A DNA stretch of 32,000 nt from Ruminococcus albus 7 = DSM 20455 (lineage in GTDB: Bacteria; Bacillota; Clostridia; Oscillospirales; Ruminococcaceae). Position 1 is the first letter of the stretch, and each line of letters starts with the position of its first letter. The stretch spans positions 90,001-122,000 of the forward strand of contig NC_014824.1 in the NCBI RefSeq assembly GCF_000179635.2, in the 5' to 3' direction. Below the pieces are notes generated by a model, which did not search any database, was not told the DNA's origin, and saw nothing but the letters and a program-made list of their open reading frames with translations. The translations under genes were made by a program, and so were the position numbers. Positions 3,441 through 18,301 of this stretch are shown in pieces.

Positions 3441-3541
3441 TTTGACGGTTATCTTAGTTTCACTTTCCGTCAATAGTATAAACTAATAATATTTTCTAAT
3501 ATAAAAATTGACGAATGGTCAAGAAAAACGGAACGATATTA

Positions 3542-3570: not shown

Positions 3571-3619
3571 ATTATTGATATATTGCCGTTTCGGCACTAG
3601 AATTCAGGAGGACATAAAT

Positions 3620-5065
3620 ATGAAGTTAAAAAAAGTTTTAGCAGTAGTGATGTCACTTTGTATGGTGGCAGGAACTGTCAGCTACGGCGCACCTGTTATA
3701 ACACAGAGCATAACTGCGCAGGCGGCTGATTCAGCAACAAGCGGCTTTTCATTTAACCAAACAACAGGTATGCTTACGCTTAGCGGTACTGTTGATGGTG
3801 ATGCTTTACGTAAATTTAACAATACCTATCGCGATAACGTTTGGTCTGTCATAGTTTTGGAAGGAACTGTTCTTCCTGAAGACTGCAGCAAGCTTTTTTG
3901 CGAATATCCTTGTTATTCCATCGACCTTTCAAATGCGGATACAAGTAATGTAAAAAATATGAGCAGAATGTTCGATAACTGTTGCAATCTTAAATCGCTC
4001 AATTTAAGTGGATTTGATACAAGCAATGTTACTGATATGAGCTATATGTTCAACGAGTGTGGCAAACTTTATTCTATCGATGTAAGCGGATTTGATACAA
4101 GCAACGTTACAGATATGGGTGATATGTTCTCTCTTTGTGACCAATTAACATCGCTTGATGTAAGCAGATTTAACACAAGCAAAGTTACAGATATGAGTGG
4201 TATGTTCAATTCCTGTCTTAGCTTGTCAACGCTTGATGTTAGCGGTTTTGACACAAGCAATGTTACAGATATGTGTGATATGTTCTGGGGCTGTGCAAAA
4301 TTGACGTCACTTGATATTAGCAAATTTGACACAAGCAAAGTTACAAATATGGGTGGTATGTTCTGTGCCTGTAATAAATTGACTACACTTGATGTAAGCG
4401 GATTTGATACAAGCAAAGTAACCGATATGTCAGGAATGTTCGCTTCAACTAACTTATCAACACTTGATGTAAGCGGATTTGATACAAGCAAAGTAACCGA
4501 TATGATGGCAATGTTCTCTTCAAGAAATTTGACCGAACTTGATCTGAGCTCGTTTGATACAAGCAAAGTTACAAAGATGAACTGGATGTTCTCTTCTAAT
4601 CTACGTTCCCTTACTCTTGGCGAGAATTTCAAAAATGTTCCCGAAGAAGCAGAACTTTATAATGACAAAGGCTGGGTAAATTCCAAAGACATCGCGACTG
4701 TAGTCAGCGGTAACGGAGAGTATGCAGTTATCGAAAACACCGGCAAGAACACCTATAAGCGCTTACCTATCGTTGAAGAAACCAAGCTTACCTACCCTAC
4801 TAACATCAAAGTCGAGTACATAAAAAAATACCACCAGGTAAGATTCACATGGGATAAGGTCGAAAGTGCTGACAAATACAGCATTGCTGTTTTCCTTGCA
4901 GGCAAGTGGAGAGTTCAGAAACAGGATATCACCGGCACTGTTTATACATCTCCCAAAAATCTCACCCCGGGGAAGTCATACAAAGTCGCTATCGCTGCCA
5001 GAGTTGACGGAAAATGGGACACAGCAAATGCTATAAAACATTCGGGTACTGTTACTATAAGGTGA
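3620..5065 (+). CDS. Secreted DUF285/BspA-family LRR surface protein with C-terminal Fn3-like module
   Basis: SD aggagg, then ATG 3620. Signal peptide MKLKKVLAVVMSLCMVAGTVSYG. About 11 tandem 26-aa units of the form LDVSGFDTSNVTDMS.MF..C..LT. Tail KVEYIKKYHQVRFTWDKVESADKYSIAVFLAGKWRV...SGTVTIR. Confidence 0.85.
   Translation: MKLKKVLAVVMSLCMVAGTVSYGAPVITQSITAQAADSATSGFSFNQTTGMLTLSGTVDGDALRKFNNTYRDNVWSVIVLEGTVLPEDCSKLFCEYPCYSIDLSNADTSNVKNMSRMFDNCCNLKSLNLSGFDTSNVTDMSYMFNECGKLYSIDVSGFDTSNVTDMGDMFSLCDQLTSLDVSRFNTSKVTDMSGMFNSCLSLSTLDVSGFDTSNVTDMCDMFWGCAKLTSLDISKFDTSKVTNMGGMFCACNKLTTLDVSGFDTSKVTDMSGMFASTNLSTLDVSGFDTSKVTDMMAMFSSRNLTELDLSSFDTSKVTKMNWMFSSNLRSLTLGENFKNVPEEAELYNDKGWVNSKDIATVVSGNGEYAVIENTGKNTYKRLPIVEETKLTYPTNIKVEYIKKYHQVRFTWDKVESADKYSIAVFLAGKWRVQKQDITGTVYTSPKNLTPGKSYKVAIAARVDGKWDTANAIKHSGTVTIR
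3925..4600 (+). repeat. In-frame 78-bp tandem repeats encoding the 26-aa LRR units
   Basis: Periodic tttgatacaagcaa(t/a)gt.ac.gatatg motif every 78 nt. Confidence 0.8.
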
Positions 5066-5183
5066 CAGTTCAAAATTGATTCGATTTGATAAATGCAAAA
5101 CGGGACTGTTTCAACTAAGCAACAGCTCCTTCAAATTTGTCTCAACAAGAACAAGCTCTTTATTCTTAAAGGAGGAGGATCAT

Positions 5184-7859
5184 ATGAAAATTTTCAAACG
5201 CTTGACCGCTCTGTTTTGTACCGGTGGAATGCTCCTTATGTCAGCACCACACTGTGTTCTCACCTCTCATGCGGCACAAACAGTCAAGCTGTCACCGGAT
5301 AATACTTTTACCATAAACAATGGCGAATTTGAGGGCTGGGGTACATCTCTTTGCTGGTGGGCCAATCGCCTCGGCTATTCTGACTCGCTGGCACAGCAGG
5401 CAGCGGATGTGTTCTACGGTGATGAAGGTCTACGTCTTAATATTGCTCGCTTTAATATCGGCGGCGGTGATGATCCAAGCCACAATCATATCACACGAAC
5501 CGATTCCAATATGCCGGGATATACTAAGTATAGCAACGGAAAAATTACCTATGATTGGAGTGCTGATGCCAATCAGCGCAATGTGCTTATGCGGTCTATT
5601 CAGGCTGCCGGAGATGATATGATTGTGGAAATGTTCTCCAATTCGCCGCCCTATTACATGACGAAGAGCGGCTGTTCGTCAGGATCGGCAGATGCCAAAA
5701 GCAACAATCTGAAGGACGACCAATACGATGATTTTGCGCGGTATTTCGCGGAGGTTTGCTATCACTATCAGCACGACTGGGGCGTGAAGATCCAGAGCGC
5801 GGAAGCTATGAATGAGCCGTATACCAACTTCTGGAAGGCCAACAGCTACAAGCAGGAGGGCTGTCACTTCGATCAGGGAAGCTCGCAGTCAACCATGATC
5901 GTGGAGCTGCAAAAGGCGATGCGTGACAAGGGAATGGGCGATGTTATTCTTTGCGGTACGGATGAGACCTCCATTGACACGCAGATTAGCTCTTTTAACA
6001 AGCTCTCTAATGATGCCAAAAAAGCGATCGGTCGTATCGACACCCACACCTACGGCGGCAGCAAACGTGCCGAGCTAAAAAATATTGCCCTGTCCAACGG
6101 AAAAAATCTCTGGATGAGCGAGGTGGACAGCAGCGGCACGGCCGGGACGAATGCAGGTGAAATGAGTGCGGCACTCTGGCTGGCACAGCGTATCACGACC
6201 GATGTCAACGACATGAACGCATCGGCGTGGATCATGTGGCAGGTGATCGACAGCCACATTTCAAAGAACGGCTACAACGGCCGAAAGGATACCGGTATGG
6301 TGGACACGCAGAAGGGCTACTGGGGCGTGGCAGTTGCCAACCATGATGCAAATAAGATCGTTCTGACGAAGAAATACTACGCTTTCGGACAGTACTCGCG
6401 CTATATTCGCCCCGGTATGATTATGCTGAACTCCTCCGGCAATACTGTTGCCGCTTATGATCCTGAGACGGGACAGATCGTGGCTGTTTCCTACAATACA
6501 AGCGGCAGCAGTGCTGACATAACTTTCGATCTTTCAGACTTTGCTGAGGTTGGCAGCACGGCAAATGCGATCCGCACGAGCAAGAATGAGAACTGGAAGA
6601 ATGTGGGCACTATCAATCTAAACGGCAAAACGCTGAATGCAACCTTGCCCGGCAATTCCATCACAACGTTTGTCATTGAGGGAAATGGCAGTATAGGCGG
6701 CAATGAGATCAAGGTGCAGGCTGACAAGCTAAGCGGCTCTGACTCGTGGAAGCAAAATGCAGATACCGATTTCCACAAGGCTTTTGACGGCGACAACGCA
6801 ACATACTTCGACGGCACGAGAGTCGGCTGGGTACAGGCAGATCTGGGTGCGGTCTACGATCTGAGCGCACTTGCTTACTGCCCTCGTCAGAACTATGAAT
6901 ACCGTATGGTGGATGGCTATTTCGAGGTGTCGATGGACGGCACAGACTGGCAGAGCATACACACAATTAGTGAGAATCCCACATTTGCCATGCACAAAGT
7001 GAAACTTGAAAAGCCGATCACGGCACGTTATATCCGCTATGCAGTACCAGAGGGCAAGCCGCGCAACAGCTACAACACAAATGATGTTTATTGCTGTAAT
7101 GTAGCGGAAATCAAGCTCTATGGCACGCTGAATCCGGAGACGAGCTTTACAAAATTAGCGCCCGAAGCAACAAGCGGTACAGATTCGTGGAAGCAGCAGG
7201 AAGGCTACAATTACGGAAAGGCGTTTGATGGCGATACTGCAACCTACTTTGACGGTGTGGGTGCAGGCTGGGTACAGGCTGGTCTTGGGAAAATATGTGA
7301 GCTGAATGCGATCGCCTACACTCCCCGTAAGGGCTACGAAGCACGAATGGTGGACGGCTATTTCAGCGTTTCCGAGGATGGCACAAGCTGGCAGACGGTA
7401 CACACGATCGGCAGGATGCCCACATCGGACACACAGACCGTTATGCTCGATGCATCGGTGAAAGCAAGGTATATCCGCTACGCTGTTCCGGAGGGAAAGC
7501 CGAATAACGGCGTGAATACCGATGATGTGTACTGCTGCAATATTGCGGAGCTTGCGTTCTATGGCGCTGTACTGCCGAATGCGGTAATCAGCAACACTAT
7601 AAAAGTTGAATACAGCGAGAAATATCACCAGGTAAGATTCACATGGGATAAAGTCGAAGGCGCCGACAGATATGGAATTGCTGTATATCTTGCCGGCAAG
7701 TGGAGAGTTCAGGCGCAGAACATCACCGGTACGGTTTATACATCTCCCAAGAACCTGACACCCGGTAAGAAATACAGAGTCGCAATCGCTGCAAGGGTGA
7801 ACGGCAAATGGGATACCGCAAACGCTATCAAACATTCAGGTACCGTCACCATAAGATAA
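5184..7859 (+). CDS. Secreted glycoside hydrolase family 30 (clan GH-A) enzyme with two F5/8-type-C (CBM32-like) domains and a C-terminal Fn3-like module
   Basis: SD aaggagg, then ATG 5184, followed by a signal peptide. Motifs FEGWGTSLCWWANRLG, EAMNEPY (acid/base Glu) and LWMSEVD (nucleophile Glu). Two ~140-aa repeats: SWKQ...KAFDGD.ATYFDG...GWVQA.LG...ARYIRYAVPEGKP. Tail KVEYSEKYHQVRFTWDKVEGADRYGIAVYLAGKWRV...SGTVTIR. Confidence 0.9.
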   Translation: MKIFKRLTALFCTGGMLLMSAPHCVLTSHAAQTVKLSPDNTFTINNGEFEGWGTSLCWWANRLGYSDSLAQQAADVFYGDEGLRLNIARFNIGGGDDPSHNHITRTDSNMPGYTKYSNGKITYDWSADANQRNVLMRSIQAAGDDMIVEMFSNSPPYYMTKSGCSSGSADAKSNNLKDDQYDDFARYFAEVCYHYQHDWGVKIQSAEAMNEPYTNFWKANSYKQEGCHFDQGSSQSTMIVELQKAMRDKGMGDVILCGTDETSIDTQISSFNKLSNDAKKAIGRIDTHTYGGSKRAELKNIALSNGKNLWMSEVDSSGTAGTNAGEMSAALWLAQRITTDVNDMNASAWIMWQVIDSHISKNGYNGRKDTGMVDTQKGYWGVAVANHDANKIVLTKKYYAFGQYSRYIRPGMIMLNSSGNTVAAYDPETGQIVAVSYNTSGSSADITFDLSDFAEVGSTANAIRTSKNENWKNVGTINLNGKTLNATLPGNSITTFVIEGNGSIGGNEIKVQADKLSGSDSWKQNADTDFHKAFDGDNATYFDGTRVGWVQADLGAVYDLSALAYCPRQNYEYRMVDGYFEVSMDGTDWQSIHTISENPTFAMHKVKLEKPITARYIRYAVPEGKPRNSYNTNDVYCCNVAEIKLYGTLNPETSFTKLAPEATSGTDSWKQQEGYNYGKAFDGDTATYFDGVGAGWVQAGLGKICELNAIAYTPRKGYEARMVDGYFSVSEDGTSWQTVHTIGRMPTSDTQTVMLDASVKARYIRYAVPEGKPNNGVNTDDVYCCNIAELAFYGAVLPNAVISNTIKVEYSEKYHQVRFTWDKVEGADRYGIAVYLAGKWRVQAQNITGTVYTSPKNLTPGKKYRVAIAARVNGKWDTANAIKHSGTVTIR

Positions 7860-8337: not shown

Positions 8338-9507
8338 ATGCTGAACAGAATAGCACAAAAAGCGCTGCTTCGTCTTGCAGAGCAGTTCCCGATAGTAGGA
8401 ATCACAGGTCCAAGACAGAGTGGCAAATCTACGCTTACAAAGATCACCTTCCCCGACAAAAAGTATGTAACTTTTGATGATAAAAATATGCGTGAACTTG
8501 CAAAATCAAACCCCGCCGACTTTATTATGGCATTTCCAAATGGTGCCGTTATTGACGAAGCTCAAAAGGTGCCTGAGATATTTGATGCGCTTAAGCTTCA
8601 TGTTGACAGCGCTCCTTTCACACCGGGAAAATTCATTCTCACCGGTTCAAGCCAGTTCAGGCTTAGAAAGAATATGTCCGACAGCCTTGCAGGAAGGGCT
8701 GCTTTTCTGAAACTGCTCCCTTTTTCCATTAAAGAGCTTAAAGATGCTGACCTTCTGCCAAAGAACGCTTACGACCTTATTTTCGTAGGACAGTATCCTC
8801 CGCTTTTTGACAGTGAAAAGCATTATATTGCAGAAGACTGGTTTGAGAGCTATATCGACACTTATCTTGATCTAGATGTTAAAGACCAGATCAATGAGAG
8901 CAATCTGTCAACATTCAGAAAGTTCATTCAGATATGTGCTATATACAGCGGTCAGCTTCTTTCAATGGACAGCATAGCTAAGCAGATAGGTATTTCCCAA
9001 CCCACAGTAAAAAGCTGGCTGTCTATTCTTGAAAACTCATATATCATTCATTTGCTGGAGCCTGATACGAACAATCTTGGGCGTTCGATAGTAAAGACAC
9101 CAAAGCTGTATTTCGTCGATTCGGGACTGCTGTGTCATTTGTTAAGGTTGGAGAGCAAAGAAGATCTGCTTCTGAGCAAGTACAAGGGTGCTGTTGTTGA
9201 GACCTGTGCAGTAGCAGAGATGCTGAAAAACAGAATGAATCAGGCAAAAAAGCCGAATCTGACATTTTACAGAGACAGCAACGGTTTTGAGGTAGACACC
9301 ATAGCCGACTGGAAACACACATTTGCAGTAGAGATAAAAAGCTCAAGCGATGCGGAAGCAAAGCTGTCTGCAAACACTAAAAAGTATCTTACACTGCGAA
9401 ATGACGACAATGCCCATAATGCAGTATTCTATCTCGGTGATATCAGCATGACGATCAATGATACAATGTATGTCAGCTGGAAGGATTGGGGAGATCACCT
9501 TAATTAA
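8338..9507 (+). CDS. AAA+ ATPase with DUF4143 C-terminal domain (AAA_14/DUF4143 family)
   Basis: 389-aa ORF with SD gaggagg. Walker A GPRQSGKST and Walker B-like AVIDEAQ. The overall pattern is typical of the ATP-binding protein/DUF4143 family (from memory). Confidence 0.85.
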   Translation: MLNRIAQKALLRLAEQFPIVGITGPRQSGKSTLTKITFPDKKYVTFDDKNMRELAKSNPADFIMAFPNGAVIDEAQKVPEIFDALKLHVDSAPFTPGKFILTGSSQFRLRKNMSDSLAGRAAFLKLLPFSIKELKDADLLPKNAYDLIFVGQYPPLFDSEKHYIAEDWFESYIDTYLDLDVKDQINESNLSTFRKFIQICAIYSGQLLSMDSIAKQIGISQPTVKSWLSILENSYIIHLLEPDTNNLGRSIVKTPKLYFVDSGLLCHLLRLESKEDLLLSKYKGAVVETCAVAEMLKNRMNQAKKPNLTFYRDSNGFEVDTIADWKHTFAVEIKSSSDAEAKLSANTKKYLTLRNDDNAHNAVFYLGDISMTINDTMYVSWKDWGDHLN

Positions 9508-9638: not shown

Positions 9639-9667
9639 TTGATTTTTTCTTGTAGATATGATATAAT
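9639..9667 (+). promoter_or_regulatory. Promoter of tRNA module 1
   Basis: TTGATT, 17-nt spacer, TGaTATAAT (extended -10). Confidence 0.65.
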
Positions 9668-9699: not shown

Positions 9700-9828
9700 A
9701 TGAATAAGTTCACTGTTTCATATCTGTATAGCGAATCATTATTGAGCCTCGTCCTCGAATCGGAAGAGACTTCTTTTGTGCTGCGTACAGATAAAGTGGA
9801 TGAACATTTCGGGATTTCTTGTTTCTAA
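9700..9828 (+). CDS. Mini-ORF 1 (42 aa), candidate leader peptide: MNKFTVSYLYSESLLSLVLESEETSFVLRTDKVDEHFGISCF
   Basis: SD aaaggag lies 8 nt upstream of the ATG. The ORF lies between a consensus promoter and an intrinsic terminator. Codons 7-23 are almost exclusively Ser/Tyr/Leu/Glu. Confidence 0.6.
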   Translation: MNKFTVSYLYSESLLSLVLESEETSFVLRTDKVDEHFGISCF

Positions 9829-9851: not shown

Positions 9852-9886
9852 AACACCGTCTGTTTGCAGCAGGCGGTGTTTTTGTT
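9852..9886 (+). terminator. Intrinsic terminator / attenuator 1
   Basis: aacaccgtctg (9852-9862) pairs with caggcggtgtt (9870-9880). Loop tttgcag, followed by tttgtt. Confidence 0.75.
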
Positions 9887-9888
9887 AT

Positions 9889-9983
9889 GCCCATGTGTAT
9901 GAACGTTATCACCATAGTTGATAACTGGCATACATTTATGTTTTAGAAACAGGCTTTTTGGGGTTCGAGTCTCCCCACGGGTA
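9889..9983 (+). other. tRNA-like element (95 nt) with a canonical T-arm and acceptor end but no canonical anticodon arm; possibly a degenerate class-II tRNA
   Basis: T-arm tgggg-TTCGAGT-ctccc. Acceptor gcccatg/cacgggt has one A-C mismatch. Possible D-stem tatg/cata. I could not fold a 5-bp stem with a 7-nt anticodon loop. Confidence 0.3.
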
Positions 9984-9991
9984 TTATTTTT

Positions 9992-10066
9992 GCGGGATTG
10001 GCGGAACAGGCATACGCGACGGTCTCAAATACCGTTTTATTCAGGGTTCGACTCCCTGATTCCGCA
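9992..10066 (+). tRNA. tRNA with anticodon CAA (Leu) but a short (~6 nt) variable region
   Basis: Acceptor GCGGGAT/ATTCCGC plus A73. Leu-type D-arm TGGCGGAACAGGCATACGC. Anticodon stem ACGGT/ACCGT with loop CTCAAAT. T-arm CAGGG-TTCGACT-CCCTG. Total 75 nt. Confidence 0.7.
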
Positions 10067-10073
10067 TTTATAT

Positions 10074-10146
10074 GCTCTCGTAGACCAACGGCAGAGTGAA
10101 CGGACTTAAACCCCGTGTAGTGTGAGTTCGAATCTCACCGGGAGCA
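10074..10146 (+). tRNA. tRNA with anticodon UAA (Leu), class-I length, weak D-stem
   Basis: Acceptor GCTCTCG/CGGGAGC plus A73. Anticodon stem ACGGA/CCCGT with an A31-C39 mismatch, loop CTTAAAC. T-arm GTGAG-TTCGAAT-CTCAC. Only 2-3 bp of D-stem could be drawn. Confidence 0.55.
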
Positions 10147-10181
10147 TCAGGATCAATATACTTAGAAAGGAGATGTTTTCA

Positions 10182-10406
10182 ATGCCGGTGATAGACGTCA
10201 AAGCAACAGGAGCGAATATTAAAGCTATAATGAAAATGAAGGGCTTCAAGATCGCTGATGTTCAGGCAAGGTGCGGTTTCAATACTCCGCAGGCTATTTT
10301 CAAGTGGCTGCGTGGAGACGCTGTGCCAACTATAGATAATATGATAATCATAGCCGATATGTTCGGCGTGACTATCGATCAGATAGTTATAATCAAGAAG
10401 ATCTGA
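10182..10406 (+). CDS. Small XRE-family helix-turn-helix protein (74 aa), embedded between tRNA genes
   Basis: SD aaaggag, then ATG 10182. Sequence MPVIDVKATGANIKAIMKMKGFKIADVQARCGFNTPQAIFKWLRGDAVPTIDNMIIIADMFGVTIDQI. Roughly half of its residues match the protein at 11429-11659 by eye. Confidence 0.8.
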   Translation: MPVIDVKATGANIKAIMKMKGFKIADVQARCGFNTPQAIFKWLRGDAVPTIDNMIIIADMFGVTIDQIVIIKKI

Positions 10407-10430
10407 CTGTTATTGCGGTAACAGTCATAA

Positions 10431-10502
10431 GGCTGCATCGTCTAATGGTCAGGACACAAGGTTTTCAACCTTGAAACGTGGGTTCAACTCCCACTGCGGT
10501 CA
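10431..10502 (+). tRNA. tRNA-Glu (UUC)
   Basis: Acceptor GGCTGCA/TGCGGTC. D-arm GTCTAATGGTCAGGAC. Anticodon stem CAAGG/CCTTG with loop TTTTCAA. T-arm GTGGG-TTCAACT-CCCAC. Confidence 0.8.
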
Positions 10503-10567
10503 TTAATTCATCCGTATATGACATCAGCTATATTATAAGTATTCAAAAAAAATATTTCCATCCTTAA

Positions 10568-10596
10568 TTGACTTTTCGGGGATTTTCTTATATAAT
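10568..10596 (+). promoter_or_regulatory. Promoter of the gene at 10648-11094
   Basis: TTGACT, 17-nt spacer, TATAAT. Confidence 0.55.
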
Positions 10597-10647
10597 TAAA
10601 TAAGAATATTGTATTACTTATTTGAGATAATGAAAGGATGTTTTCTT

Positions 10648-11094
10648 ATGTCCATAGATAAAAGAACCGAAATGATCCTAAAAAAAGAGTCATTGACTAT
10701 ATTCAATCAGTTTTGTTCAAAACTGCCATCGGAGTCTTTAGGTCTGTTAATGATGTATCTGCAAAAGTTCAATGACGATAATCCTGATAACGGAACCATT
10801 GTTTTTACTAAAAAAGAATATGAAAAGAAGCTGGGAAATGAAGAAATATCAATCGATGAAATTCAGGACGGCATTCCAGATTTACTAGGTCCGGTAAGAT
10901 TTAAAGGCGATATTCAAATAATGTTTTCTATGTTCATAAGCATTAATATCAGGAAAATAAGCAATGAATATTCAATATTTATGACCTGCAGTGATATTGC
11001 AAAGGATTATATCTTTACCGATCCAAATGTTGCAAAGTATAATTTTATAGACGAGATAAAGAGAAGAATAGACGAGTTAACAAGTATAATGTAG
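10648..11094 (+). CDS. Hypothetical protein (148 aa); only a vague resemblance to winged-helix replication-initiator N-terminal domains
   Basis: SD aaagga, then ATG 10648 (MSIDKRTEMILKKESLTIFNQF...). No motif I can name with confidence. Confidence 0.55.
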   Translation: MSIDKRTEMILKKESLTIFNQFCSKLPSESLGLLMMYLQKFNDDNPDNGTIVFTKKEYEKKLGNEEISIDEIQDGIPDLLGPVRFKGDIQIMFSMFISINIRKISNEYSIFMTCSDIAKDYIFTDPNVAKYNFIDEIKRRIDELTSIM

Positions 11095-11107
11095 CTTACA
11101 AAGCTAC

Positions 11108-11136
11108 TTGACAATTCTCTTTATGAGTGTTATAAT
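11108..11136 (+). promoter_or_regulatory. Promoter of tRNA module 2
   Basis: TTGACA, 17-nt spacer, TGtTATAAT (consensus, extended -10). Confidence 0.7.
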
Positions 11137-11196
11137 CAGTTACAACAAGAGGGGAGCAACGATCTCCCGAAATTATATTACGAAAGGGTGAAAACA

Positions 11197-11334
11197 ATGA
11201 ATTCTATCATGAACAATACTGTTGTCAGATCATATGATGATTACCAGTGCTTCTTTAGCTTTAGTTTTGATTGGCAAGACGAAGGCTTATTTGTGCTGCA
11301 TACGAACACCGGTAATTGTTCAGTTCAAAGATAG
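11197..11334 (+). CDS. Mini-ORF 2 (45 aa), candidate leader peptide: MNSIMNNTVVRSYDDYQCFFSFSFDWQDEGLFVLHTNTGNCSVQR
   Basis: SD aaagggtg. The ORF lies between a consensus promoter and an intrinsic terminator. Codons 13-28 read YDDYQCFFSFSFDWQD. Confidence 0.6.
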   Translation: MNSIMNNTVVRSYDDYQCFFSFSFDWQDEGLFVLHTNTGNCSVQR

Positions 11335-11366
11335 AGTTTATTGACCATCTTCTGAGAGAATATGAC

Positions 11367-11407
11367 CGCCTGTATGTAGTGCAAACTCATACAGGCGATT
11401 TTTTATT
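11367..11407 (+). terminator. Intrinsic terminator / attenuator 2
   Basis: Perfect 10-bp stem cgcctgtatg / catacaggcg with an 11-nt loop, followed by attttttatt. Confidence 0.8.
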
Positions 11408-11428
11408 CTATCGGAAGGTGGTATTATT

Positions 11429-11659
11429 ATGACTGAAGAGATGCCTGTCATAAATATGACAGCGACAGGTTCCAATATAAAGACTCTTATAAAAGCAAAA
11501 GGTTTTAAAGTGACAGAGCTTCAGAACATTCTGGTGTTCAACACACCTCAGTCCATATTCAAATGGATGAGAGGGGAGTCCATACCCTCTATCGACAATC
11601 TGGTGATTCTGGCACATATACTGAATGTCACCATTGATGAGATAATAATCCTTAACTAA
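11429..11659 (+). CDS. Small XRE-family helix-turn-helix protein (76 aa), paralog of 10182-10406
   Basis: SD aaggtgg. Sequence MTEEMPVINMTATGSNIKTLIKAKGFKVTELQNILVFNTPQSIFKWMRGESIPSIDNLVILAHILNVTIDEI. Confidence 0.8.
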   Translation: MTEEMPVINMTATGSNIKTLIKAKGFKVTELQNILVFNTPQSIFKWMRGESIPSIDNLVILAHILNVTIDEIIILN

Positions 11660-11684
11660 TACGTCCTGTTCATTCAGGACACAC

Positions 11685-11758
11685 GGCTCCGTAGTTTAAC
11701 CGGCTAAAACACCGGCCTGTCACGTCGGAGAGCGCGGGTTCAAGTCCCGCCGGAGTCG
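11685..11758 (+). tRNA. tRNA-Asp (GUC)
   Basis: Acceptor GGCTCCG/CGGAGTC plus G73. Anticodon stem CCGGC/GTCGG with loop CTGTCAC. T-arm GCGGG-TTCAAGT-CCCGC. Confidence 0.85.
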
Positions 11759-11764
11759 TCATAA

Positions 11765-11835
11765 TTCCGTTTCGTCTAGTGGTAGGACATCGGTTTCTGA
11801 CACCGAAAACGGGAGTTCAAATCTCTCAGCGGAAA
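11765..11835 (+). tRNA. tRNA-Gln (CUG)
   Basis: Acceptor TTCCGTT/AGCGGAA (U1-A72). Anticodon stem TCGGT/ACCGA with loop TTCTGAC. T-arm GGGAG-TTCAAAT-CTCTC. Confidence 0.8.
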
Positions 11836-11841
11836 TAATTT

Positions 11842-11912
11842 GACTGTGTAGCCAAGTGGAAAGGCTGTCGGCTGCAACCCGACGAGCGTAGGTTCGATCC
11901 CTATCACAGTCT
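11842..11912 (+). tRNA. tRNA-Cys (GCA)
   Basis: Acceptor GACTGTG/CACAGTC plus U73. Anticodon stem GTCGG/CCGAC with loop CTGCAAC. T-arm GTAGG-TTCGATC-CCTAT. Confidence 0.85.
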
Positions 11913-11922
11913 TTAATCACAT

Positions 11923-11995
11923 GCCTCTGTAGCTCAGTTGGTAGAGCGTATGCCTGAAGAGCATAGCGTCGCAAGTTCGATTCTTGCCGGAGGCA
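11923..11995 (+). tRNA. tRNA-Phe (GAA)
   Basis: Acceptor GCCTCTG/CGGAGGC. D-arm TAGCTCAGTTGGTAGAGC. Anticodon stem TATGC/GCATA with loop CTGAAGA. T-arm GCAAG-TTCGATT-CTTGC. Confidence 0.9.
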
Positions 11996-12017
11996 CTTGT
12001 AAAAGTACAAATGTTTT

Positions 12018-12046
12018 TTGAATATCACAAATGTTATCTGTACTAA
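12018..12046 (+). promoter_or_regulatory. Possible internal promoter between tRNA-Phe and tRNA-Gln(UUG)
   Basis: TTGAAT, 17-nt spacer, TACTAA. A weak hairpin ttgta-aaag-tacaa plus a T-run (11997-12019) precedes it. Confidence 0.3.
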
Positions 12047-12048
12047 AT

Positions 12049-12120
12049 TTCCGTTTCGTCTAACAGGCAGGACAACAGACTTTGACTCTGTCAATGGGAG
12101 TTCGATCCTCTCAACGGAAG
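12049..12120 (+). tRNA. tRNA-Gln (UUG)
   Basis: Acceptor TTCCGTT/AACGGAA plus G73. Anticodon stem ACAGA/TCTGT with loop CTTTGAC. T-arm GGGAG-TTCGATC-CTCTC. Confidence 0.85.
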
Positions 12121-12127
12121 CTAATAA

Positions 12128-12204
12128 GTCTCTATTACAAATTATGTATTGAAATTCTATCGGGTATCATCTTTAGAATTCAAGGAGTAGTTTGTAATAG
12201 AGAT
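12128..12204. repeat. 77-nt bipartite hairpin in the spacer between tRNA-Gln(UUG) and tRNA-Trp
   Basis: Outer arms gtctctattacaaa (12128-12141) / tttgtaatagagat (12191-12204). Inner arms aattcta / tagaatt. Confidence 0.6.
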
Positions 12205-12213
12205 GATAGAAAT

Positions 12214-12285
12214 AGGAGAATAGTTCAATGGCTAGAATGACGGTCTCCAAAACCGTAGATCTCAGTTCGACTCTGAGTTCTCCTG
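12214..12285 (+). tRNA. tRNA-Trp (CCA)
   Basis: Acceptor AGGAGAA/TTCTCCT plus G73. Anticodon stem ACGGT/ACCGT with loop CTCCAAA. T-arm CTCAG-TTCGACT-CTGAG. Confidence 0.85.
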
Positions 12286-12302
12286 TCTATACTACAGGTT
12301 TA

Positions 12303-12331
12303 TTGAAATCTGTACTAAGTTATGTTATAAT
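12303..12331 (+). promoter_or_regulatory. Promoter of tRNA module 3
   Basis: TTGAAA, 17-nt spacer, TGtTATAAT (extended -10). Confidence 0.7.
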
Positions 12332-12363
12332 GTCATTAAAGAAATCAAGAAAGGAAGTTCATT

Positions 12364-12456
12364 ATGAAAAACACAGTATTTGCATTCTCATATTCATATA
12401 GTTATTCAAGCGTTGTTCAGAAGAATAAGGCTCGTTTGGCTATGCGTGAATGTTGA
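12364..12456 (+). CDS. Mini-ORF 3 (30 aa), candidate leader peptide: MKNTVFAFSYSYSYSSVVQKNKARLAMREC
   Basis: SD aaaggaag lies 7 nt upstream of the ATG. The ORF lies between a consensus promoter and an intrinsic terminator. Codons 9-16 read SYSYSYSS (tca tat tca tat agt tat tca agc). Confidence 0.6.
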   Translation: MKNTVFAFSYSYSYSSVVQKNKARLAMREC

Positions 12457-12482
12457 TACTGCTTGATGATAAGCTTCAGCAT

Positions 12483-12520
12483 ATACCGTTTGGCTTTCGG
12501 GTCAGGCGGTATTTTTATTT
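12483..12520 (+). terminator. Intrinsic terminator / attenuator 3
   Basis: ataccgtttggc pairs with gtcaggcggtat (12 bp including G-U pairs). Loop tttcgg, followed by ttttatttgtt. Confidence 0.75.
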
Positions 12521-12527
12521 GTTATTC

Positions 12528-12613
12528 GGGAGAGTCACCCAGCGGCGAGGGCAGCGGTCCGTAAAACCGTGACATTAGAAACATCGAAGGTTCGAGTCCT
12601 TCCTCTCCCACCA
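12528..12613 (+). tRNA. tRNA-Tyr (GUA), class II, CCA encoded, C at position 33
   Basis: Acceptor GGGAGAG/CTCTCCC, then A and CCA. Anticodon stem GCGGT/ACCGT with loop CCGTAAA. Long variable arm. T-arm GAAGG-TTCGAGT-CCTTC. Confidence 0.8.
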
Positions 12614-12617
12614 ATAT

Positions 12618-12703
12618 GAGCAGGTACAGAGAATCGGCAAACTCGGCGGTCTGTAAAACCGTTGCTTTATGCGTAGTGGGGTCGGCACCCACCCTGCCCA
12701 CCA
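12618..12703 (+). tRNA. Second tRNA-Tyr (GUA), divergent (A2-C71 mismatch, non-canonical T-loop), CCA encoded
   Basis: Acceptor GAGCAGG/CCTGCCC, then A and CCA. Anticodon loop CTGTAAA. T-arm GTGGG-GTCGGCA-CCCAC lacks the TTCRA signature. Confidence 0.6.
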
Positions 12704-12706
12704 TAT

Positions 12707-12798
12707 GTTGGCATAACCCTAACTGGTAAGGGATCGTCTTGGAAAGGCGAGAGTAATCGGAGTTTTCCGATGTTTCGGTTCGAATCCGAATGCCGACG
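12707..12798 (+). tRNA. tRNA-Ser (GGA)
   Basis: Acceptor GTTGGCA/TGCCGAC plus G73. Anticodon stem TCGTC/GGCGA with loop TTGGAAA. Long variable arm atcgga-gttt-tccgat. T-arm TTCGG-TTCGAAT-CCGAA. Confidence 0.85.
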
Positions 12799-12804
12799 TT
12801 ATGC

Positions 12805-12890
12805 GCTGTGTTAGTGTAATTGGTAACACACTGCTCCCGAAAAGCAGCGTCCTTTTGGACTTACAGGTTCGAGTCCTGTACACAGCGCCA
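12805..12890 (+). tRNA. tRNA-Ser (CGA), CCA encoded
   Basis: Acceptor GCTGTGT/ACACAGC, then G and CCA. Anticodon stem CTGCT/AGCAG with loop CCCGAAA. Variable arm gtcc-tttt-ggac. T-arm ACAGG-TTCGAGT-CCTGT. Confidence 0.8.
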
Positions 12891-12893
12891 TAT

Positions 12894-12988
12894 GGTCACA
12901 TAAGCCTAATTGGTAAGGCAGCGGTTTGCTAAACCGTGAGTAATCGGGTTATTCTGATGTCCGAGTTCAAATCTCGGTGTGGCCGCCA
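12894..12988 (+). tRNA. tRNA-Ser (GCU), CCA encoded
   Basis: Acceptor GGTCACA/TGTGGCC, then G and CCA. Anticodon stem GCGGT/ACCGT with loop TTGCTAA. Long variable arm. T-arm CCGAG-TTCAAAT-CTCGG. Confidence 0.85.
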
Positions 12989-12991
12989 TCT

Positions 12992-13078
12992 GCCGTGTAT
13001 GCAGGCTGGCTCTGCAAACTGTCTTGAAAACAGTATACCGTAAAAAACGGTACGTGGGTTCGATTCCCTCACGCGGCG
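12992..13078 (+). tRNA. tRNA-Ser (UGA)
   Basis: Acceptor GCCGTGT/ACGCGGC plus G73. Anticodon stem ACTGT/ACAGT with loop CTTGAAA. Variable arm taccg-taaaaaa-cggta. T-arm GTGGG-TTCGATT-CCCTC has one mismatch. Confidence 0.8.
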
Positions 13079-13560: not shown

Positions 13561-13678
13561 ATAAATTTTCTTGTATAATAATATTGTAGATAATAATTAA
13601 TAACTGGAGGTCAGACAGATCAAATAATACTACTAATATAACACTATGGAACATAAAGCCATAAAAGGAGTGAACACT

Positions 13679-14797
13679 ATGGCAAACAAAGCATTTAAAT
13701 TCAGAATATACCCAAATAACGAGCAAAAGGTTTTGTTTGCCAAAACCTTCGGCTGTGTGAGATTGGTATATAACTATTGGTTATACAAAAAGATCAAGCA
13801 GTATAAAGAATATGAGACAACTTTAAATTACAATGCTTGTGCCAAAGAAATGGCTGAACTTAAGAAAATGGAGAAATACTCATTCTTACGGGAAGTGGAC
13901 AGCGTATCATTGCAGCAGTCGCTTCGACACCTGGATACAGCGTTTCAGAACTTCTATAAACAGCCTAAAACAGGATTTCCCAGGTTCAAATCAAAAAAAT
14001 GTAAAAAGAACAGCTATTCTACCGTTTGTATCAATGGTAACATAGCCATATCCAATGGATACTTGAAATTACCTAAAGTCGGACAAGTCAAAGTAAAACA
14101 GCACAGGAACATTCCTAATGAATATGTTCTCAAGTCTGTGACAGTAAGTCAGACTCCAAGCGGAAAATACTATGCAAGTATTCTGTATGAGTACGAAAAC
14201 CAAGTACAGGAACAGGAACTGCATGACTTCTTAGGGCTTGACTTTTCGATGCACGAGCTGTACAAAGACAGCAACGGCAATGAACCGGCTTACCCCGGAT
14301 ACTACAGAAGAGCTGAAAAAAAGCTAAAAAGAGAACAAAAAAAACTTTCTCTTATGCAGAAAGGCTCTAAAAACCGTGATAAACAACGTATCAAGGTTGC
14401 TAAAATGCATGAGAAAGTTGCAAATCAACGAAAGGACTTTCTACATAAACAGTCAAGACAGATAGCCAATGCCTATGATTGTGTATGTATAGAAGATCTA
14501 AACATGCAAGCAATGTCTCAGGCACTTAAATTCGGCAAGTCGGTTTCAGATAACGGCTGGGGAATGTTTGTAACATTCCTGAAGTACAAACTGGAAGAGC
14601 AAGGCAAAAGGCTTGTAAAGATAGATAAATTCTTTGCGAGCAGTCAGACTTGTTCGTGCTGTGGATACATCAATAAGGAAACAAAGAACCTTGCTATAAG
14701 AGCATGGGACTGTCCCGAATGCGGAACTCACCATAACAGAGATGTAAATGCTGCAATAAATATAAGAAATGAAGGTATGCGTATAGCATTAGCGTAG
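13679..14797 (+). CDS. tnpB: TnpB RNA-guided endonuclease (IS200/IS605 OrfB family), apparently intact
   Basis: SD aaaggag, then ATG 13679 (MANKAFKFRIYPNNEQ...). RuvC residues are present: LGLDFS (D), CIEDLN (E), HNRDVNAAINI (D). Zinc finger CSCCG...CPECG. Confidence 0.9.
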   Translation: MANKAFKFRIYPNNEQKVLFAKTFGCVRLVYNYWLYKKIKQYKEYETTLNYNACAKEMAELKKMEKYSFLREVDSVSLQQSLRHLDTAFQNFYKQPKTGFPRFKSKKCKKNSYSTVCINGNIAISNGYLKLPKVGQVKVKQHRNIPNEYVLKSVTVSQTPSGKYYASILYEYENQVQEQELHDFLGLDFSMHELYKDSNGNEPAYPGYYRRAEKKLKREQKKLSLMQKGSKNRDKQRIKVAKMHEKVANQRKDFLHKQSRQIANAYDCVCIEDLNMQAMSQALKFGKSVSDNGWGMFVTFLKYKLEEQGKRLVKIDKFFASSQTCSCCGYINKETKNLAIRAWDCPECGTHHNRDVNAAINIRNEGMRIALA

Positions 14798-16123: not shown

Positions 16124-17449
16124 ATGCAGATATATACGACTTACAGCGTTAAGATCAAGCATTACAACAACATCTTTAAAGATACCGTTATCGTATACAG
16201 ACATGCTGTAGATTACCTTATCAGCGTTTGTCTGGATCATTGGGATAACATTGTTACATTCAAAGGGGTGAGTAGACTCACATATATTGAAACACTGATC
16301 CATGCTACAAAAGATAATCCCGATCCAATTTATGATTTTGATGCCAAATTCTATAAGATGCCAAGCTATCTGCGCCGTGGTGCAATCAACGAGGCTATAG
16401 GCAAGGTATCATCTTACAAAAGCAATCTCGATAACTGGATCAAAGATCCGGTCGGAAGAGAACCATCGCATCCAAAAGCAGGTTATTCATTCCCGTCTAT
16501 GTATCGTACAGGAATGTACAATCAGACCGGTGATTATACTGCCCAGATCAAAGTCTACATCCGTAATACATGGGACTGGATAACGATAAACCTTAAAAAG
16601 TCTGATATGGATTATATATACAGACATTGCCGCTTACGCAAACAATGCGCTCCAACACTTCAAAAACGAGGCAAGGAGTGGTTTTTGGACTTTCCGTTTG
16701 AGGAAAAGGTCAAACTTGCAGATATATCTGTGTATGAACAGACCATTGTTGCTGTAGATCTTGGTATCAACACTGCCGCTACGGTTTCCGTAATGCGTTC
16801 AGATGGCACTATTCTTGGAAGGCATTTTTGTAAGCTTACCAAAGAAACAGACCATCTGATGCATAGCATTAACCGTATAAAAAAAGCTCAGCAGCATGGT
16901 AACTATAAAACACCAAGGCTTTGGGCAAAAGCCAAAGGCATCAATCACGACATTGCCATAAAAACTGCGAACTGCATCGTAAATATAGCTGTTCTTTATA
17001 ATGCAGATGTTATTGTATTTGAGCATTTAGACAAGAACGGTAAGGTCCGCGGTTCTAAAAAGCAGAAACTCAAGCTGTGGCGCAGTCAGGAAGTTCAGTC
17101 TATTGTAACGAATAAAGCTCACAGACTGGGTATGAGAGTAAGCCATATCTGTGCATGGAATACGTCACGCCTTGCCTACGATGGCAGTGGTTTTGTACTT
17201 CGTGGTAAATTCGGTGGTTTCAATACCTATGAGCTATGCAAATTTCAAAATGGCAAGTCCTACAACTGTAATCTATCTGCTTCGTATAATATTGGGGCAA
17301 GATATTTCATACGTGAAATATTAAAATCCTTGGATGAGAATTCAAGGTTGCTCATTGAGGCAAAAGTACCTCAATGCAGTAAGAGAAGCACCTGCACGTT
17401 CTCTACCTTAGTTAACCTGAATGCGGAAATTATTGCTCAAACAGCATAA
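16124..17449 (+). CDS. TnpB-related protein (441 aa) with an atypical RuvC-III / zinc-finger region
   Basis: SD ggaggga, then ATG 16124. RuvC-I IVAVDLGIN and RuvC-II DVIVFEHLD are present. The position aligning to RDVNAAINI reads CNLSASYNI (Asn instead of Asp). The CxxC...CxxC cysteines are replaced by LAYDGSG ... CKFQNGKSYNC. Confidence 0.75.
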   Translation: MQIYTTYSVKIKHYNNIFKDTVIVYRHAVDYLISVCLDHWDNIVTFKGVSRLTYIETLIHATKDNPDPIYDFDAKFYKMPSYLRRGAINEAIGKVSSYKSNLDNWIKDPVGREPSHPKAGYSFPSMYRTGMYNQTGDYTAQIKVYIRNTWDWITINLKKSDMDYIYRHCRLRKQCAPTLQKRGKEWFLDFPFEEKVKLADISVYEQTIVAVDLGINTAATVSVMRSDGTILGRHFCKLTKETDHLMHSINRIKKAQQHGNYKTPRLWAKAKGINHDIAIKTANCIVNIAVLYNADVIVFEHLDKNGKVRGSKKQKLKLWRSQEVQSIVTNKAHRLGMRVSHICAWNTSRLAYDGSGFVLRGKFGGFNTYELCKFQNGKSYNCNLSASYNIGARYFIREILKSLDENSRLLIEAKVPQCSKRSTCTFSTLVNLNAEIIAQTA

Positions 17450-17556
17450 TTTTCTGAGTTCAGGCTGTATGGTAGAAACGTAGTCCGCCTGCCTAAAGTG
17501 GGCGTGTCCGCTAGACACTATAGGAAGCACGCGACTTTAGTCGTGTGAGGCTTCAC
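17450..17556 (+). ncRNA. Probable omega-RNA-like scaffold 3' part of element 2
   Basis: Structured tail after the tnpB-like stop, ending in the hairpin at 17528-17547 plus aggcttcac. Confidence 0.4.
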
Positions 17557-18300
17557 AACGTCTTCTGTGATGATTGTTTTCGGGAGAATTTGCAGTGTCG
17601 AAAACTGGAAAGCATGGTATCTTTCAGGGTAGTAACAGATAAGTTCTTTCATCTTTTTGTTGTATCCGTGATGTGAATTTACATAGCAGCACCATCTGCC
17701 AAATAAACCATCTTCACCGTAAGCCGAGCCGCCATATTGCTTTCCTGTTTCCGTGTCAACGATAAGATAGATGGCATTTACGGATTTGAGCGCAATGTGC
17801 CATGCTTCGTATATCTCTTTGTTATCCACGATTTCTTTAAGCTGGTCATAGGAAAGCAACGCTTCATCATATCCCATAAATACTTTCTTCTGGTCGGGCA
17901 TTATTGAGATAACAGGCTTTTCTGTCGTTCCTTTTTGATCCCACTTACGAGTAGACGGACCCCAATCAATGGTCAGTTTGCCTTCGTATTCTTTTAGCAG
18001 ATCAACTTTTGTTAGCTCGTATATTGCATTATCGCCTTTATAGCATTCCGCTTCTTTTTCAGGCATTCCTTCGGGAAGCATATCTGGAGTGTCAGAAACA
18101 TAATCACCAACTTTGTATATGGCATAAAGCTGAGCTAAAGTGCCTTTACCACTTATAAATACGACCCAGTATTCATAAACTTTTCCATTGTCAGCACACT
18201 CTTTGAAAACCTTATCAGAAAGTGCGTGTCTTATTAGCTTAACTTTTTTGGGATCCAGTCCTACTTTTTTCAGAATATCAGAAAAATACAGTATTACCAT
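17518..18300 (-). CDS. GIY-YIG nuclease-domain protein (260 aa); the last ~13 codons are read from the IS element 2 end
   Basis: Start MVILYFSDILKK at 18300. C-terminal GIY-YIG-like block AIYLIVDTETGKQYGGSAYGEDGLFGRW. The tail VVKPHTTKVACFL overlaps 17518-17556. Confidence 0.7.
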   Translation of the reverse strand: MVILYFSDILKKVGLDPKKVKLIRHALSDKVFKECADNGKVYEYWVVFISGKGTLAQLYAIYKVGDYVSDTPDMLPEGMPEKEAECYKGDNAIYELTKVDLLKEYEGKLTIDWGPSTRKWDQKGTTEKPVISIMPDQKKVFMGYDEALLSYDQLKEIVDNKEIYEAWHIALKSVNAIYLIVDTETGKQYGGSAYGEDGLFGRWCCYVNSHHGYNKKMKELICYYPERYHAFQFSTLQILPKTIITEDVVKPHTTKVACFL

Positions 18301-18301
18301 A

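Follow-up and report, generated by a model that had tools for sequence, protein, structure and literature searches.

A probable inducible back-up tRNA island in Ruminococcus albus with codon-matched leader-peptide attenuators and atypical tRNA genes of a mobile lineage

We analyzed a 32,000-nucleotide stretch of the Ruminococcus albus 7 = DSM 20455 genome (contig NC_014824.1, positions 90,001 to 122,000; hereafter the window, with positions counted from its first letter) that carries an island of 16 tRNA genes, arranged in three units and representing 10 amino acids, several of which a first-pass annotation made from the letters alone had described as structurally atypical. Our findings suggest that the island is likely an inducible back-up tRNA set in which traits maintained in a mobile lineage are overlaid by strain-level damage. 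The three transcription units, in an R. albus-like chromosome, would be members of a family of additional tRNA arrays that is widespread, mobile and phage-related, with each array, usually together with a small XRE-type helix-turn-helix (HTH) gene, placed behind a ribosome-stalling attenuator whose leader open reading frame (ORF) would be rich in exactly those codons that the downstream-encoded tRNAs read. The odd tRNA features would stem from this separate lineage and not from the housekeeping set. Selection would have maintained the class I tRNA-Leu architecture (A73, A14, A15-U48, G18G19 and a 3-bp D-stem), an A/C opposition at position 31-39 in Leu(UAA) and an occasional C33, and strain-level damage, as expected in rarely used genes, would account for an insertion in Leu(UAG), the G10xG25 opposition in Leu(UAA) and the A2xC71 mismatch in the second tRNA-Tyr gene (Tyr-2).

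Using the second HTH gene of the island as an anchor in species-representative genomes, we gathered 80 related loci from R. albus AR67 and KH2T6, many R. flavefaciens strains and rumen metagenome-assembled genomes. Leaders with terminators were present at 59 places in related loci and at three in the window, and the leader peptides fell into classes that mirror the arrays behind them. Leaders with ...SYLYSESLLSLVLESEE... precede Leu and Glu tRNA genes (elsewhere also Tyr and Ser(GCU)), those with ...DDYQCFFSFSFDWQD... precede Asp, Gln, Cys, Phe, Gln and Trp, those with ...YLYSEHYEESFYHESEE..., in which AGY Ser codons are used, precede Glu, His, Tyr and Ser(GCU), and those with ...FSYSYSYSS..., as in leader 3 of the window, precede Tyr and Ser. 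Across 42 non-redundant leaders, the array behind each leader reads 46.9% of the last 16 codons before a conserved motif, compared with 27.7 ± 2.4% for shuffled leader-array pairings, none of which (0 of 5,000) reached the observed value.

The conserved motif, GUGCUGCRUACAGA, encodes VL(H/R)TD, and its complement lies in the 5' arm and loop of the terminator. The antiterminator helix formed in this way is paired in 93.7% of cells over 34 sequences and four of its pairs change in a compensatory manner (one, for example, is U-A in 21 sequences but C-G in 7); its covariation score was reached by 0 of 500 shuffles. In the terminator helix, pairing amounts to 97.7%. With the 3' arm of the terminator left out of the fold, each of the three window leaders had the antiterminator as its structure of lowest energy. 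Like attenuators, the leaders have a short predicted ORF in which regulatory codons are clustered and an intrinsic terminator whose formation excludes that of an antiterminator overlapping the ORF, but the regulated genes encode tRNAs and an XRE HTH protein instead of products that make or charge the sensed amino acid. The island thus appears to work like an attenuator in a new application, that to tRNA genes, and its architecture, codon-to-tRNA matching, covariation and conservation are seen directly in the sequences. This leader ORF, terminator and antiterminator architecture, with codons matching the downstream tRNAs, gives good support to the suggestion in the first-pass annotation that the genes form an inducible back-up set. 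The same design was found on viral contigs, where the leader MLCNTVNVMSYEYSYEYSEFMSFERSF... is followed by a terminator, an HTH gene and then Glu, Phe, Tyr, Glu, Ser and Ser tRNA genes. Compared with known RNA families in Rfam, the leaders returned tRNA matches only, and a full-text literature search, whose coverage excluded most subscription journals, yielded no description of tRNA genes behind leader-peptide attenuators.

In the mechanism that we propose, a ribosome that reads the leader codons quickly would cover GUGCUGCRUACAGA and allow the terminator to form. With cognate charged tRNAs scarce, the ribosome would stall upstream, GUGCUGCRUACAGA would pair with the 5' arm of the terminator, and transcription would enter the tRNA genes. 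Because extra tRNA cannot help when the amino acid is lacking, the signal would be a shortage of the tRNA itself. Induction of transcription by stalling, charging and use of the island tRNAs, and the cause of housekeeping tRNA depletion are inferred parts of this model.

Within the window, the three gene groups each follow the same order of promoter-like site, ORF of 30 to 45 codons, intrinsic terminator and tRNA genes, with two small XRE-type HTH genes inside groups 1 and 2. The promoter-like sites and terminators 1 and 3 were obtained from a consensus scan, terminator 2 was read from the sequence and its fold, and tRNA calls came mainly from ARAGORN. The features are as follows.

9639..9667 (+), module 1 promoter-like site, TTGATT-17-TATAAT, TG extended
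9700..9828 (+), leader ORF 1, MNKFTVSYLYSESLLSLVLESEETSFVLRTD..., with Leu and Glu codons matching the downstream tRNAs
9778-9791 (+), antiterminator strand in leader ORF 1, GUGCUGCGUACAGA
9854..9885 (+), intrinsic terminator 1, CACCGUCUG...CAGGCGGUG plus U-run
9889..9983 (+), class I tRNA-Leu(UAG), disrupted, probable pseudogene (alignment with intact relatives)
9992..10066 (+), tRNA-Leu(CAA), class I (ARAGORN, Rfam)
10074..10146 (+), tRNA-Leu(UAA), class I (ARAGORN, Rfam)
10182..10406 (+), XRE-family HTH gene, paralog 1, within the tRNA operon
10431..10502 (+), tRNA-Glu(UUC) of the island lineage, loop UUUUCAA, A38
11108..11136 (+), module 2 promoter-like site, 12/12 match
11197..11334 (+), leader ORF 2, ...DDYQCFFSFSFDWQD...FVLHTN, with codons matching Asp, Gln, Cys, Phe, Gln and Trp downstream
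Start 11293 (+), antiterminator strand in leader ORF 2
11366..11405 (+), intrinsic terminator 2 (sequence and fold)
11429..11659 (+), XRE-family HTH gene, paralog 2, the anchor of the related-locus search
11685..12285 (+), six tRNA genes after HTH paralog 2, all canonical by covariance model:
11685-11758 (+), tRNA-Asp(GUC)
11765-11835 (+), tRNA-Gln(CUG)
11842-11912 (+), tRNA-Cys(GCA)
11923-11995 (+), tRNA-Phe(GAA)
12049-12120 (+), tRNA-Gln(UUG)
12214-12285 (+), tRNA-Trp(CCA)
12303..12331 (+), module 3 promoter-like site
12364..12456 (+), leader ORF 3, MKNTVFAFSYSYSYSS..., with Ser and Tyr codons matching the downstream Tyr and Ser tRNAs
12484..12517 (+), intrinsic terminator 3
12528..12613 (+), tRNA-Tyr(GUA) copy 1 (Tyr-1), class II, C33 at 12560, CCA encoded
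12618..12703 (+), tRNA-Tyr(GUA)-like copy 2 (Tyr-2), CCA encoded
12707..13078 (+), four class II tRNA-Ser genes:
12707-12798 (+), tRNA-Ser(GGA)
12805-12890 (+), tRNA-Ser(CGA), C33 at 12837
12894-12988 (+), tRNA-Ser(GCU)
12992-13078 (+), tRNA-Ser(UGA)

ARAGORN at its default setting called 14 tRNA genes, all on the plus strand between 9991 and 13079, and only at a relaxed threshold (80%) did it add two tRNA-like genes, Tyr-2 and a Leu(UAG) gene inside 9889-9983. We then scored the genes against the Rfam tRNA model RF00005, requiring at least its gathering score of 29 bits for membership. At this score 12 genes were recovered with 43.1 to 69.5 bits; Ser(GGA) gave 42.4 bits in E-value mode, and the best match of Ser(UGA) was tRNA-Sec at 43.6 bits, below the threshold of 47 for that family. 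Altogether, 14 of the 16 genes were counted as canonical tRNAs, Tyr-2 and 9889-9983 failing the model. All six observations that had been read from hand folds were confirmed, with minor corrections to their coordinates. A 148-amino-acid ORF (10648-11094, +) is inserted between tRNA-Glu and leader 2 and has its own strong promoter-like site at 10568-10596. It is missing at the corresponding place in two related loci (L001 and L002), and searches of Pfam, PHROG and PADLOC returned no match to it.

The two intact tRNA-Leu genes of the first unit are as unusual as had been noted. Leu(CAA) (51.5 bits) has a Leu-type D-arm, GCGG-AACAGGCAUA-CGC, together with A73 and a variable region of only 6 nucleotides (nt), UUUAUU. 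Leu(UAA) (43.1 bits) is likewise of class I size, with a variable region of 5 nt, an A31xC39 opposition (10104/10112) and a D-stem weakened by G10xG25 (G25 at 10098). The class I architecture is shared by the family: all 61 Leu tRNAs of the 80 related loci have a Leu-type D-arm, A73 and a variable loop of 4 to 6 nt, which is 5 nt in nearly all of the genes and 6 nt in the Leu(CAA) genes of the window and of locus L069 of AR67. The island Leu genes therefore lack the variable arm of more than 10 nt that defines type II tRNALeu and instead have the features of type I tRNALeu, a Leu anticodon along with a short variable loop plus A73 in a bacterium.

Two Leu families could be distinguished. The first, with anticodons AAG, CAG, CAA and UAG, has U8-G9 and a D-arm such as GCGGAACAGGCAUACGC, which resembles the canonical Leu D-arm, GCGGAAUUGGUAGACGC in E. 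coli tRNALeu. In the second, made up of UAA and a part of the CAG genes, the sequence is GCUCUCG-UA-GCCCAACGGCAGAGGC. The two families alike retain A14, G18G19, a D-stem of 3 bp, and A15 together with a variable loop whose last base is U. The Leu identity elements listed for E. coli (A73, A14, A15-U48, G18G19 and U54-A58; PMC6614811) were found in the island Leu genes on inspection of standardized sequences, with a T-loop of UUCRANU. RNAalifold predicted a class I cloverleaf for 32 distinct Leu sequences, with double (compensatory) changes in 18 of the 20 pairs. Because these pairs were kept through changes on both sides, decay is ruled out as the cause of the short arm, and this covariation, together with the universality of the trait, eliminates the view of class I Leu genes as truncated, dying genes. 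On these comparisons, class I tRNA-Leu is evidently a conserved lineage trait, whether selected or inherited.

Relatives of the Leu genes occur on mobile and viral DNA. In the Lactobacillus phages Semele and LP65 (Herelleviridae), annotated tRNA-Leu genes of 73 to 74 nt are approximately 81% identical to the Leu(UAA) family. Of 35 unique Leu sequences in viral arrays, 28 are class I, and single-gene relatives of the Leu(UAA) family are present on actinobacterial plasmids. One of these, on a Mycobacterium riyadhense plasmid (NZ_OY970457; L163, 2504-2581), is a solitary class I tRNA whose anticodon loop is 8 nt long, UUCAAAAA, and in which ARAGORN reads a four-base anticodon, CAAA. Position 31-39 of the Leu(UAA) family is A/C or C/A in 7 of 32 sequences, and both sides have changed with the opposition still unpaired (A31xC39 in the window versus C31xA39 in the 5016 gene of L001), so that this opposition is a tolerated or favored trait. 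The G10xG25 defect in the D-stem, in contrast, is a private substitution because AR67 has C at position 10098.

The segment at 9889-9983, which had been described as tRNA-like only in its acceptor and T-arm, indeed gave no match to RF00005, and its other Rfam matches were at chance level. Its acceptor, T-arm and UUUAGAA anticodon loop nevertheless align with intact 74-nt class I Leu genes (UAG, AAG or CAG), which are the first gene past the terminator in ten other loci. This ten-locus alignment identifies a plain gene with an insertion and excludes a D-armless tRNA, a piece resembling transfer-messenger RNA and an intron-bearing tRNA. The D-loop has lost its 5' part, and with it A14 and A15, to an insertion of approximately 20 nt (~9897-9916) that is common to the window and R. 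albus AR67 only. Both also have an A28xG42 mismatch in the anticodon stem, and the window has in addition a private G5-to-A change at 9893 that creates an A5xC68 mismatch. By its alignment, Leu(UAG) is a probable pseudogene and the clearest decaying duplicate of the island.

Private pair-breaking substitutions in the window are located at 9893, 10098 and 12619. The window and AR67 differ by approximately 1.3% in the tRNAs and likewise in the surrounding leader and HTH sequence. Within the tRNAs, several of these differences disrupt base pairs of either the window or AR67. This private damage would fit weak short-term selection on rarely used genes, despite long-term maintenance of structure.

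Both tRNA-Tyr genes had also been singled out. Tyr-1 (46 bits) has the anticodon loop CCGUAAA with C33 in place of the near-universal U. Tyr-2 has the reported A2xC71 mismatch (A2 at 12619) and the T-loop GUCGGCA at 12681-12687; the gene starts at 12618 and not at 12616, the two preceding bases being spacer. Among the related loci, Tyr-2-like genes were found in the window and L002 only, and A2xC71 is private to the window, L002 having G2-C71. Between the window and L002, which derive from different species-level genomes, Tyr-1 has 3 differences in 86 positions, all in the variable arm, and Tyr-2 has 2 in 88, compared with 25 in 118 for the four neighboring spacers (Fisher P = 2e-4 and 4e-5, respectively). 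Because it has accumulated far fewer differences than the spacers, even Tyr-2, with its G54/G58 T-loop, has been under constraint.

The first-pass annotation had missed a second C33 in the island, in Ser(CGA), with the loop CCCGAAA. Among 48 Tyr genes, the C33 of Tyr-1 is also present in L002 only, and C33 occurs in 14 of 337 island tRNAs (4%), spread over eight isoacceptors and clustered in some arrays (L014 has three, and L076 and the window have two each). Presence in L002 and recurrence across the family rule out a private mutation as the origin of C33 in Tyr-1. In viral arrays, 47 of 291 distinct tRNAs (16%) have C33, which is near-fixed in certain genes: 116 of 121 Asn(GUU), 71 of 71 Ser(AGA) and 43 of 47 Gly(UCC), with the viral Asn(GUU) genes varying at 27 other positions. 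Since C33 is near-fixed in particular viral-array genes, it is compatible with long-term maintenance.

CCA is encoded in four of the 16 genes (Tyr-1, Tyr-2, Ser(CGA) and Ser(GCU)), as previously counted, with only the first two lying within 9889-12703. Because 173 of 337 family tRNAs (51%) encode CCA, partial encoding is ordinary and CCA status is uninformative, and we discarded absence of CCA as an anomaly.

Housekeeping tRNA genes for comparison were those in the flanks of the 80 loci, which are limited to Glu, Asp, Cys, Met, Gly, Val, Lys and Ser. Housekeeping Glu(UUC), with the loop CUUUCAC, is identical across the four genomes in which it flanks a locus. The island Glu genes differ from it in the acceptor, the D-arm, the anticodon stem and position 38 (A38 versus C38) and vary among themselves with compensating changes. 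The anticodon loops of island Asp and Cys equal those of the flanking housekeeping copies, and Glu alone differs. By these comparisons, the island tRNAs seem to be a lineage separate from the housekeeping set.

The HTH protein has approximately 90 homologs, all in Ruminococcus or Oscillospiraceae, and islands are present in many Ruminococcus species, often with several per genome (both L019 and L069 are in AR67). The repertoire of the arrays is restricted to Leu (CAG, CAA, UAA, AAG and UAG), Glu (UUC and CUC), His, Tyr, Ser(GCU), Asp, Gln (CUG and UUG), Cys, Phe and Trp, and Ser(GCU) dominates the arrays of related loci. Module 1 is 98.5% identical to its AR67 counterpart (L069), and upstream of leader 1 the two sequences are unrelated (65% identity). 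HTH homologs of 45 to 55% identity lie inside arrays of 12 to 29 tRNA genes on contigs classed as viral in IMG/VR (L081-L160; for example, at 5202 and 6692 of L095). Searches for plasmid relatives of the island yielded single-tRNA matches only. Many of the viral loci have, at the same position as 1847 in L095, a 76-nt tRNA-like gene for which ARAGORN reports a two-base anticodon, '???(ca)', corresponding to a shortened anticodon loop.

Several known systems share parts of this design. Anabaena sp. PCC 7120 has an inducible long tRNA array, the trn operon (PMC8421152), with a ribbon-helix-helix repressor, TrcR (PMC10272220). Like the island, this operon consists of supernumerary, horizontally spread tRNA genes apart from the housekeeping set, some of them pseudogenes, and both would be silent by default, with induction on impaired translation proposed or shown. 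The Anabaena system is one 26-gene array under a ribbon-helix-helix repressor, whereas the island has units of three to six genes, each with a codon-matched leader attenuator, and XRE HTH genes in the operon; the words attenuation and leader are absent from the Anabaena trn-array paper. L-arrays or trn operons are single arrays of approximately 20 to 43 genes covering most amino acids, a description that the 16 genes, three units and 10 amino acids of the island do not fit; related viral arrays reach 12 to 29 genes. Classical attenuators (trp, his, leu, pheA and pheST; model in PMC1183508) resemble the island in having a short leader ORF, clustered regulatory codons, an exclusive antiterminator and terminator, and ribosome position as the signal, but they regulate biosynthetic enzymes or synthetases, whereas the island leaders would regulate tRNAs and an HTH protein. 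Unlike in classical attenuators, a single island leader mixes the codons of several amino acids, mirroring the mixed tRNA array. T-box riboswitches are also Firmicute systems that read tRNA charging status to control terminator read-through, but the T-box binds uncharged tRNA directly and controls synthetase or amino-acid genes, whereas the sensor in the island would be the translating ribosome and its output tRNA. Rfam gave no T-box match in the window.

For the tRNAs themselves, the type I tRNALeu(CAA) of Streptomyces coelicolor (PMC6614811) has, like the island Leu genes, a Leu anticodon, a short variable loop and A73. It is a single chromosomal gene whose product is leucylated, whereas the island family comprises whole sets of predicted tRNAs (CAA, UAA, UAG, AAG and CAG) on mobile arrays. 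The related class I gene on the Mycobacterium plasmid hints at a shared mobile pool. Phage arrays (Herelleviridae LP65 and Semele) contain homologous class I Leu genes, and related arrays are found in viral contigs, but the window island is chromosomal and predicted to be under an attenuator. In Lactobacillus phage Semele (L161, 346-551), genes of approximately 90 nt called as Tyr(AUA) and Ile(UAU), with unusual anticodons and lengths, adjoin an HNH homing endonuclease. According to one proposal, loop changes protect phage tRNAs from the anticodon nucleases of the host (PMC10264068, in which C33 is not mentioned), and phage tRNAs have been shown to rescue phages from tRNA-targeting defenses (PMC11555353 and PMC11464382). 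Deviations of the anticodon loop from host tRNAs, such as A38 in Glu and C33 in Tyr-1 and Ser(CGA), may be a point in common between these anti-defense tRNAs and some of the island tRNAs.

We weighed the inducible back-up set against three other explanations of the odd features. We regard it as very unlikely that the island is merely a redundant, horizontally acquired cluster drifting to pseudogenes, in which every odd feature is a neutral or slightly harmful lesion. The insertion and mismatches of Leu(UAG), the failure of this gene and of Tyr-2 with RF00005, the private pair-breaking substitutions in the window and AR67 at about the rate of the surrounding sequence, and the 41% of island tRNAs with at least one stem mismatch would all be expected from drift. 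Drift does not account for compensatory changes in 18 of 20 class I Leu pairs over 32 sequences or for the compensated variation of other island isotypes, nor does it account for Tyr-1 and Tyr-2 being much more conserved than adjacent spacers in two species-level genomes, for the fixation of C33 in certain related-array genes against variation at 27 other positions, or for an attenuator conserved with covariation. The two possibilities raised in the first-pass annotation thus divide the features between them. Decaying duplicates describe the Leu(UAG) insertion and mismatches and the substitutions at 9893, 10098 and 12619 but not class I Leu, the 31-39 A/C opposition or C33, whereas variants selected to differ, or inherited as such, describe class I Leu (61 of 61), the 31-39 A/C opposition, recurrent C33 and the conserved Tyr-1 and Tyr-2 but not Leu(UAG) or the private substitutions. 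It is also rather unlikely that phage ancestry alone suffices, with the features inherited from a phage tRNA pool in which compact forms are common and serving no particular purpose in Ruminococcus, and the island left over from a prophage or other mobile element. The ~81% identity of Leu(UAA) to Lactobacillus phage genes, the HTH homologs within 12- to 29-tRNA arrays on IMG/VR contigs, the TnpB and insertion sequence (IS) elements adjoining the island and the unrelated sequence upstream of leader 1 in AR67 are in line with such an origin. However, many Ruminococcus species carry islands, frequently several in one genome, inspection of the window ORFs revealed no phage structural genes, and leaders are tuned to the content of each array, which argues for ongoing selection in the host.

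The remaining explanation, which develops the first-pass idea of nuclease or toxin evasion, concerns what the features are for: C33, position 38, the 31-39 mismatch and loss of the long arm would have been selected for resistance to a tRNA-cleaving or tRNA-modifying toxin that depletes housekeeping tRNAs and triggers the attenuator. Evasion by the island tRNAs is plausible, and we hold it as a tentative possibility. The design would make sense only if tRNA, and not the amino acid, is limiting; mobile arrays show enrichment and fixation of C33; at position 38, island Glu carries A and housekeeping Glu carries C, and C38 is of importance to one known Glu-tRNA nuclease (PMC2275089); Ser(GCU) is the dominant tRNA of the arrays, in line with a report on mycobacteriophages (PMC10264068); resistance to host tRNA-cleaving nucleases (tRNases) has been proposed for phage tRNAs (PMC10264068); and flanking genes match the candidate defense proteins PDC-S01 and UzuA. 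Yet island Asp and Cys have the same anticodon loops as their flanking housekeeping counterparts, U33 is present in most island tRNAs, a U33C change was without effect on cleavage by the one nuclease on which we found data, a tRNase gene was not recognized in the window, and loss of the Leu variable arm leaves the anticodon loop untouched. Equally tentative is the idea that the island and its relatives, in Ruminococcus and on viral contigs from gut or rumen, form a tRNA-damage response that senses its own need, in which stalling would report depletion of specific tRNAs, for example by tRNases of phage defense or of bacterial competition, and release replacements whose deviant features (C33, position 31-39, position 38 and short-arm Leu) would make them poor substrates; in phages, this would be an on-demand counter-defense.

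Several points weigh against the inducible back-up set itself. The HTH gene is directly followed by a plus-strand tRNA array in approximately 70 of the 80 loci, but this association is partly ascertainment because the loci were gathered through the HTH gene, and most of the viral set belongs to a single clade from a single sample. Tyr-2 (12618-12703) and 9889-9983, searched within stretches of 111 and 121 nt, gave no match to RF00005 at E<=10. At least one stem mismatch was present in 41% of island tRNAs and 31% of a small flank sample, values that are not clearly different, and the island rate would fit weak selection. Among the prokaryotic leucyl-tRNA synthetases (LeuRS) tested, only that of Streptomyces charged type I tRNALeu (PMC6614811), and since the other bacterial enzymes failed, leucylation by the Ruminococcus LeuRS is not assured. 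The island Leu and Tyr genes are presumed to be supernumerary, and induction, processing and charging of the island tRNAs are predicted from sequence.

The comparisons tell genuine biology and decay apart in a group of tRNA genes that would partly escape annotation pipelines. They place the class I tRNA-Leu genes of bacteria and phages in a conserved mobile lineage, not as an oddity of one genome, and indicate that some mobile-array tRNAs stably keep C at position 33, which is among the least variable positions of tRNA. If the proposed control is correct, leader codons that mirror the tRNA genes would form a direct feedback loop between decoding speed and tRNA supply. This control logic would offer a testable route to the purpose of phage and island tRNAs, and a compact sensor-actuator design for synthetic biology.

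From its gene content, the region around the tRNA island looks like a defense or mobile island. Upstream, an AAA_14/DUF4143 ATPase (8338-9507, +) matches PADLOC PDC-S01 (E = 1.7e-93), and on the other side a 276-amino-acid protein (17518-18348, -) matches UzuA (E = 1.1e-72), PDC-S01 and UzuA both being candidate anti-phage defense proteins. Two IS605/TnpB-type ORFs (13646-14797, + and 16124-17449, +) lie directly downstream of the island, and an ORF at 23697-24593 (-) is IS110-like by the look of its translation. Judged from translations alone, four large proteins (1099-2625, -; 3515-5065, +; 5076-7859, +; and 27163-29547, +) share a near-identical C-terminal module, ...KVEYSKKYHQVRFTWDKVEGADRYGIAVYLAGKWRV..., with several of them containing leucine-rich-repeat-like repeats and one appearing enzyme-like with tandem C-terminal repeats.

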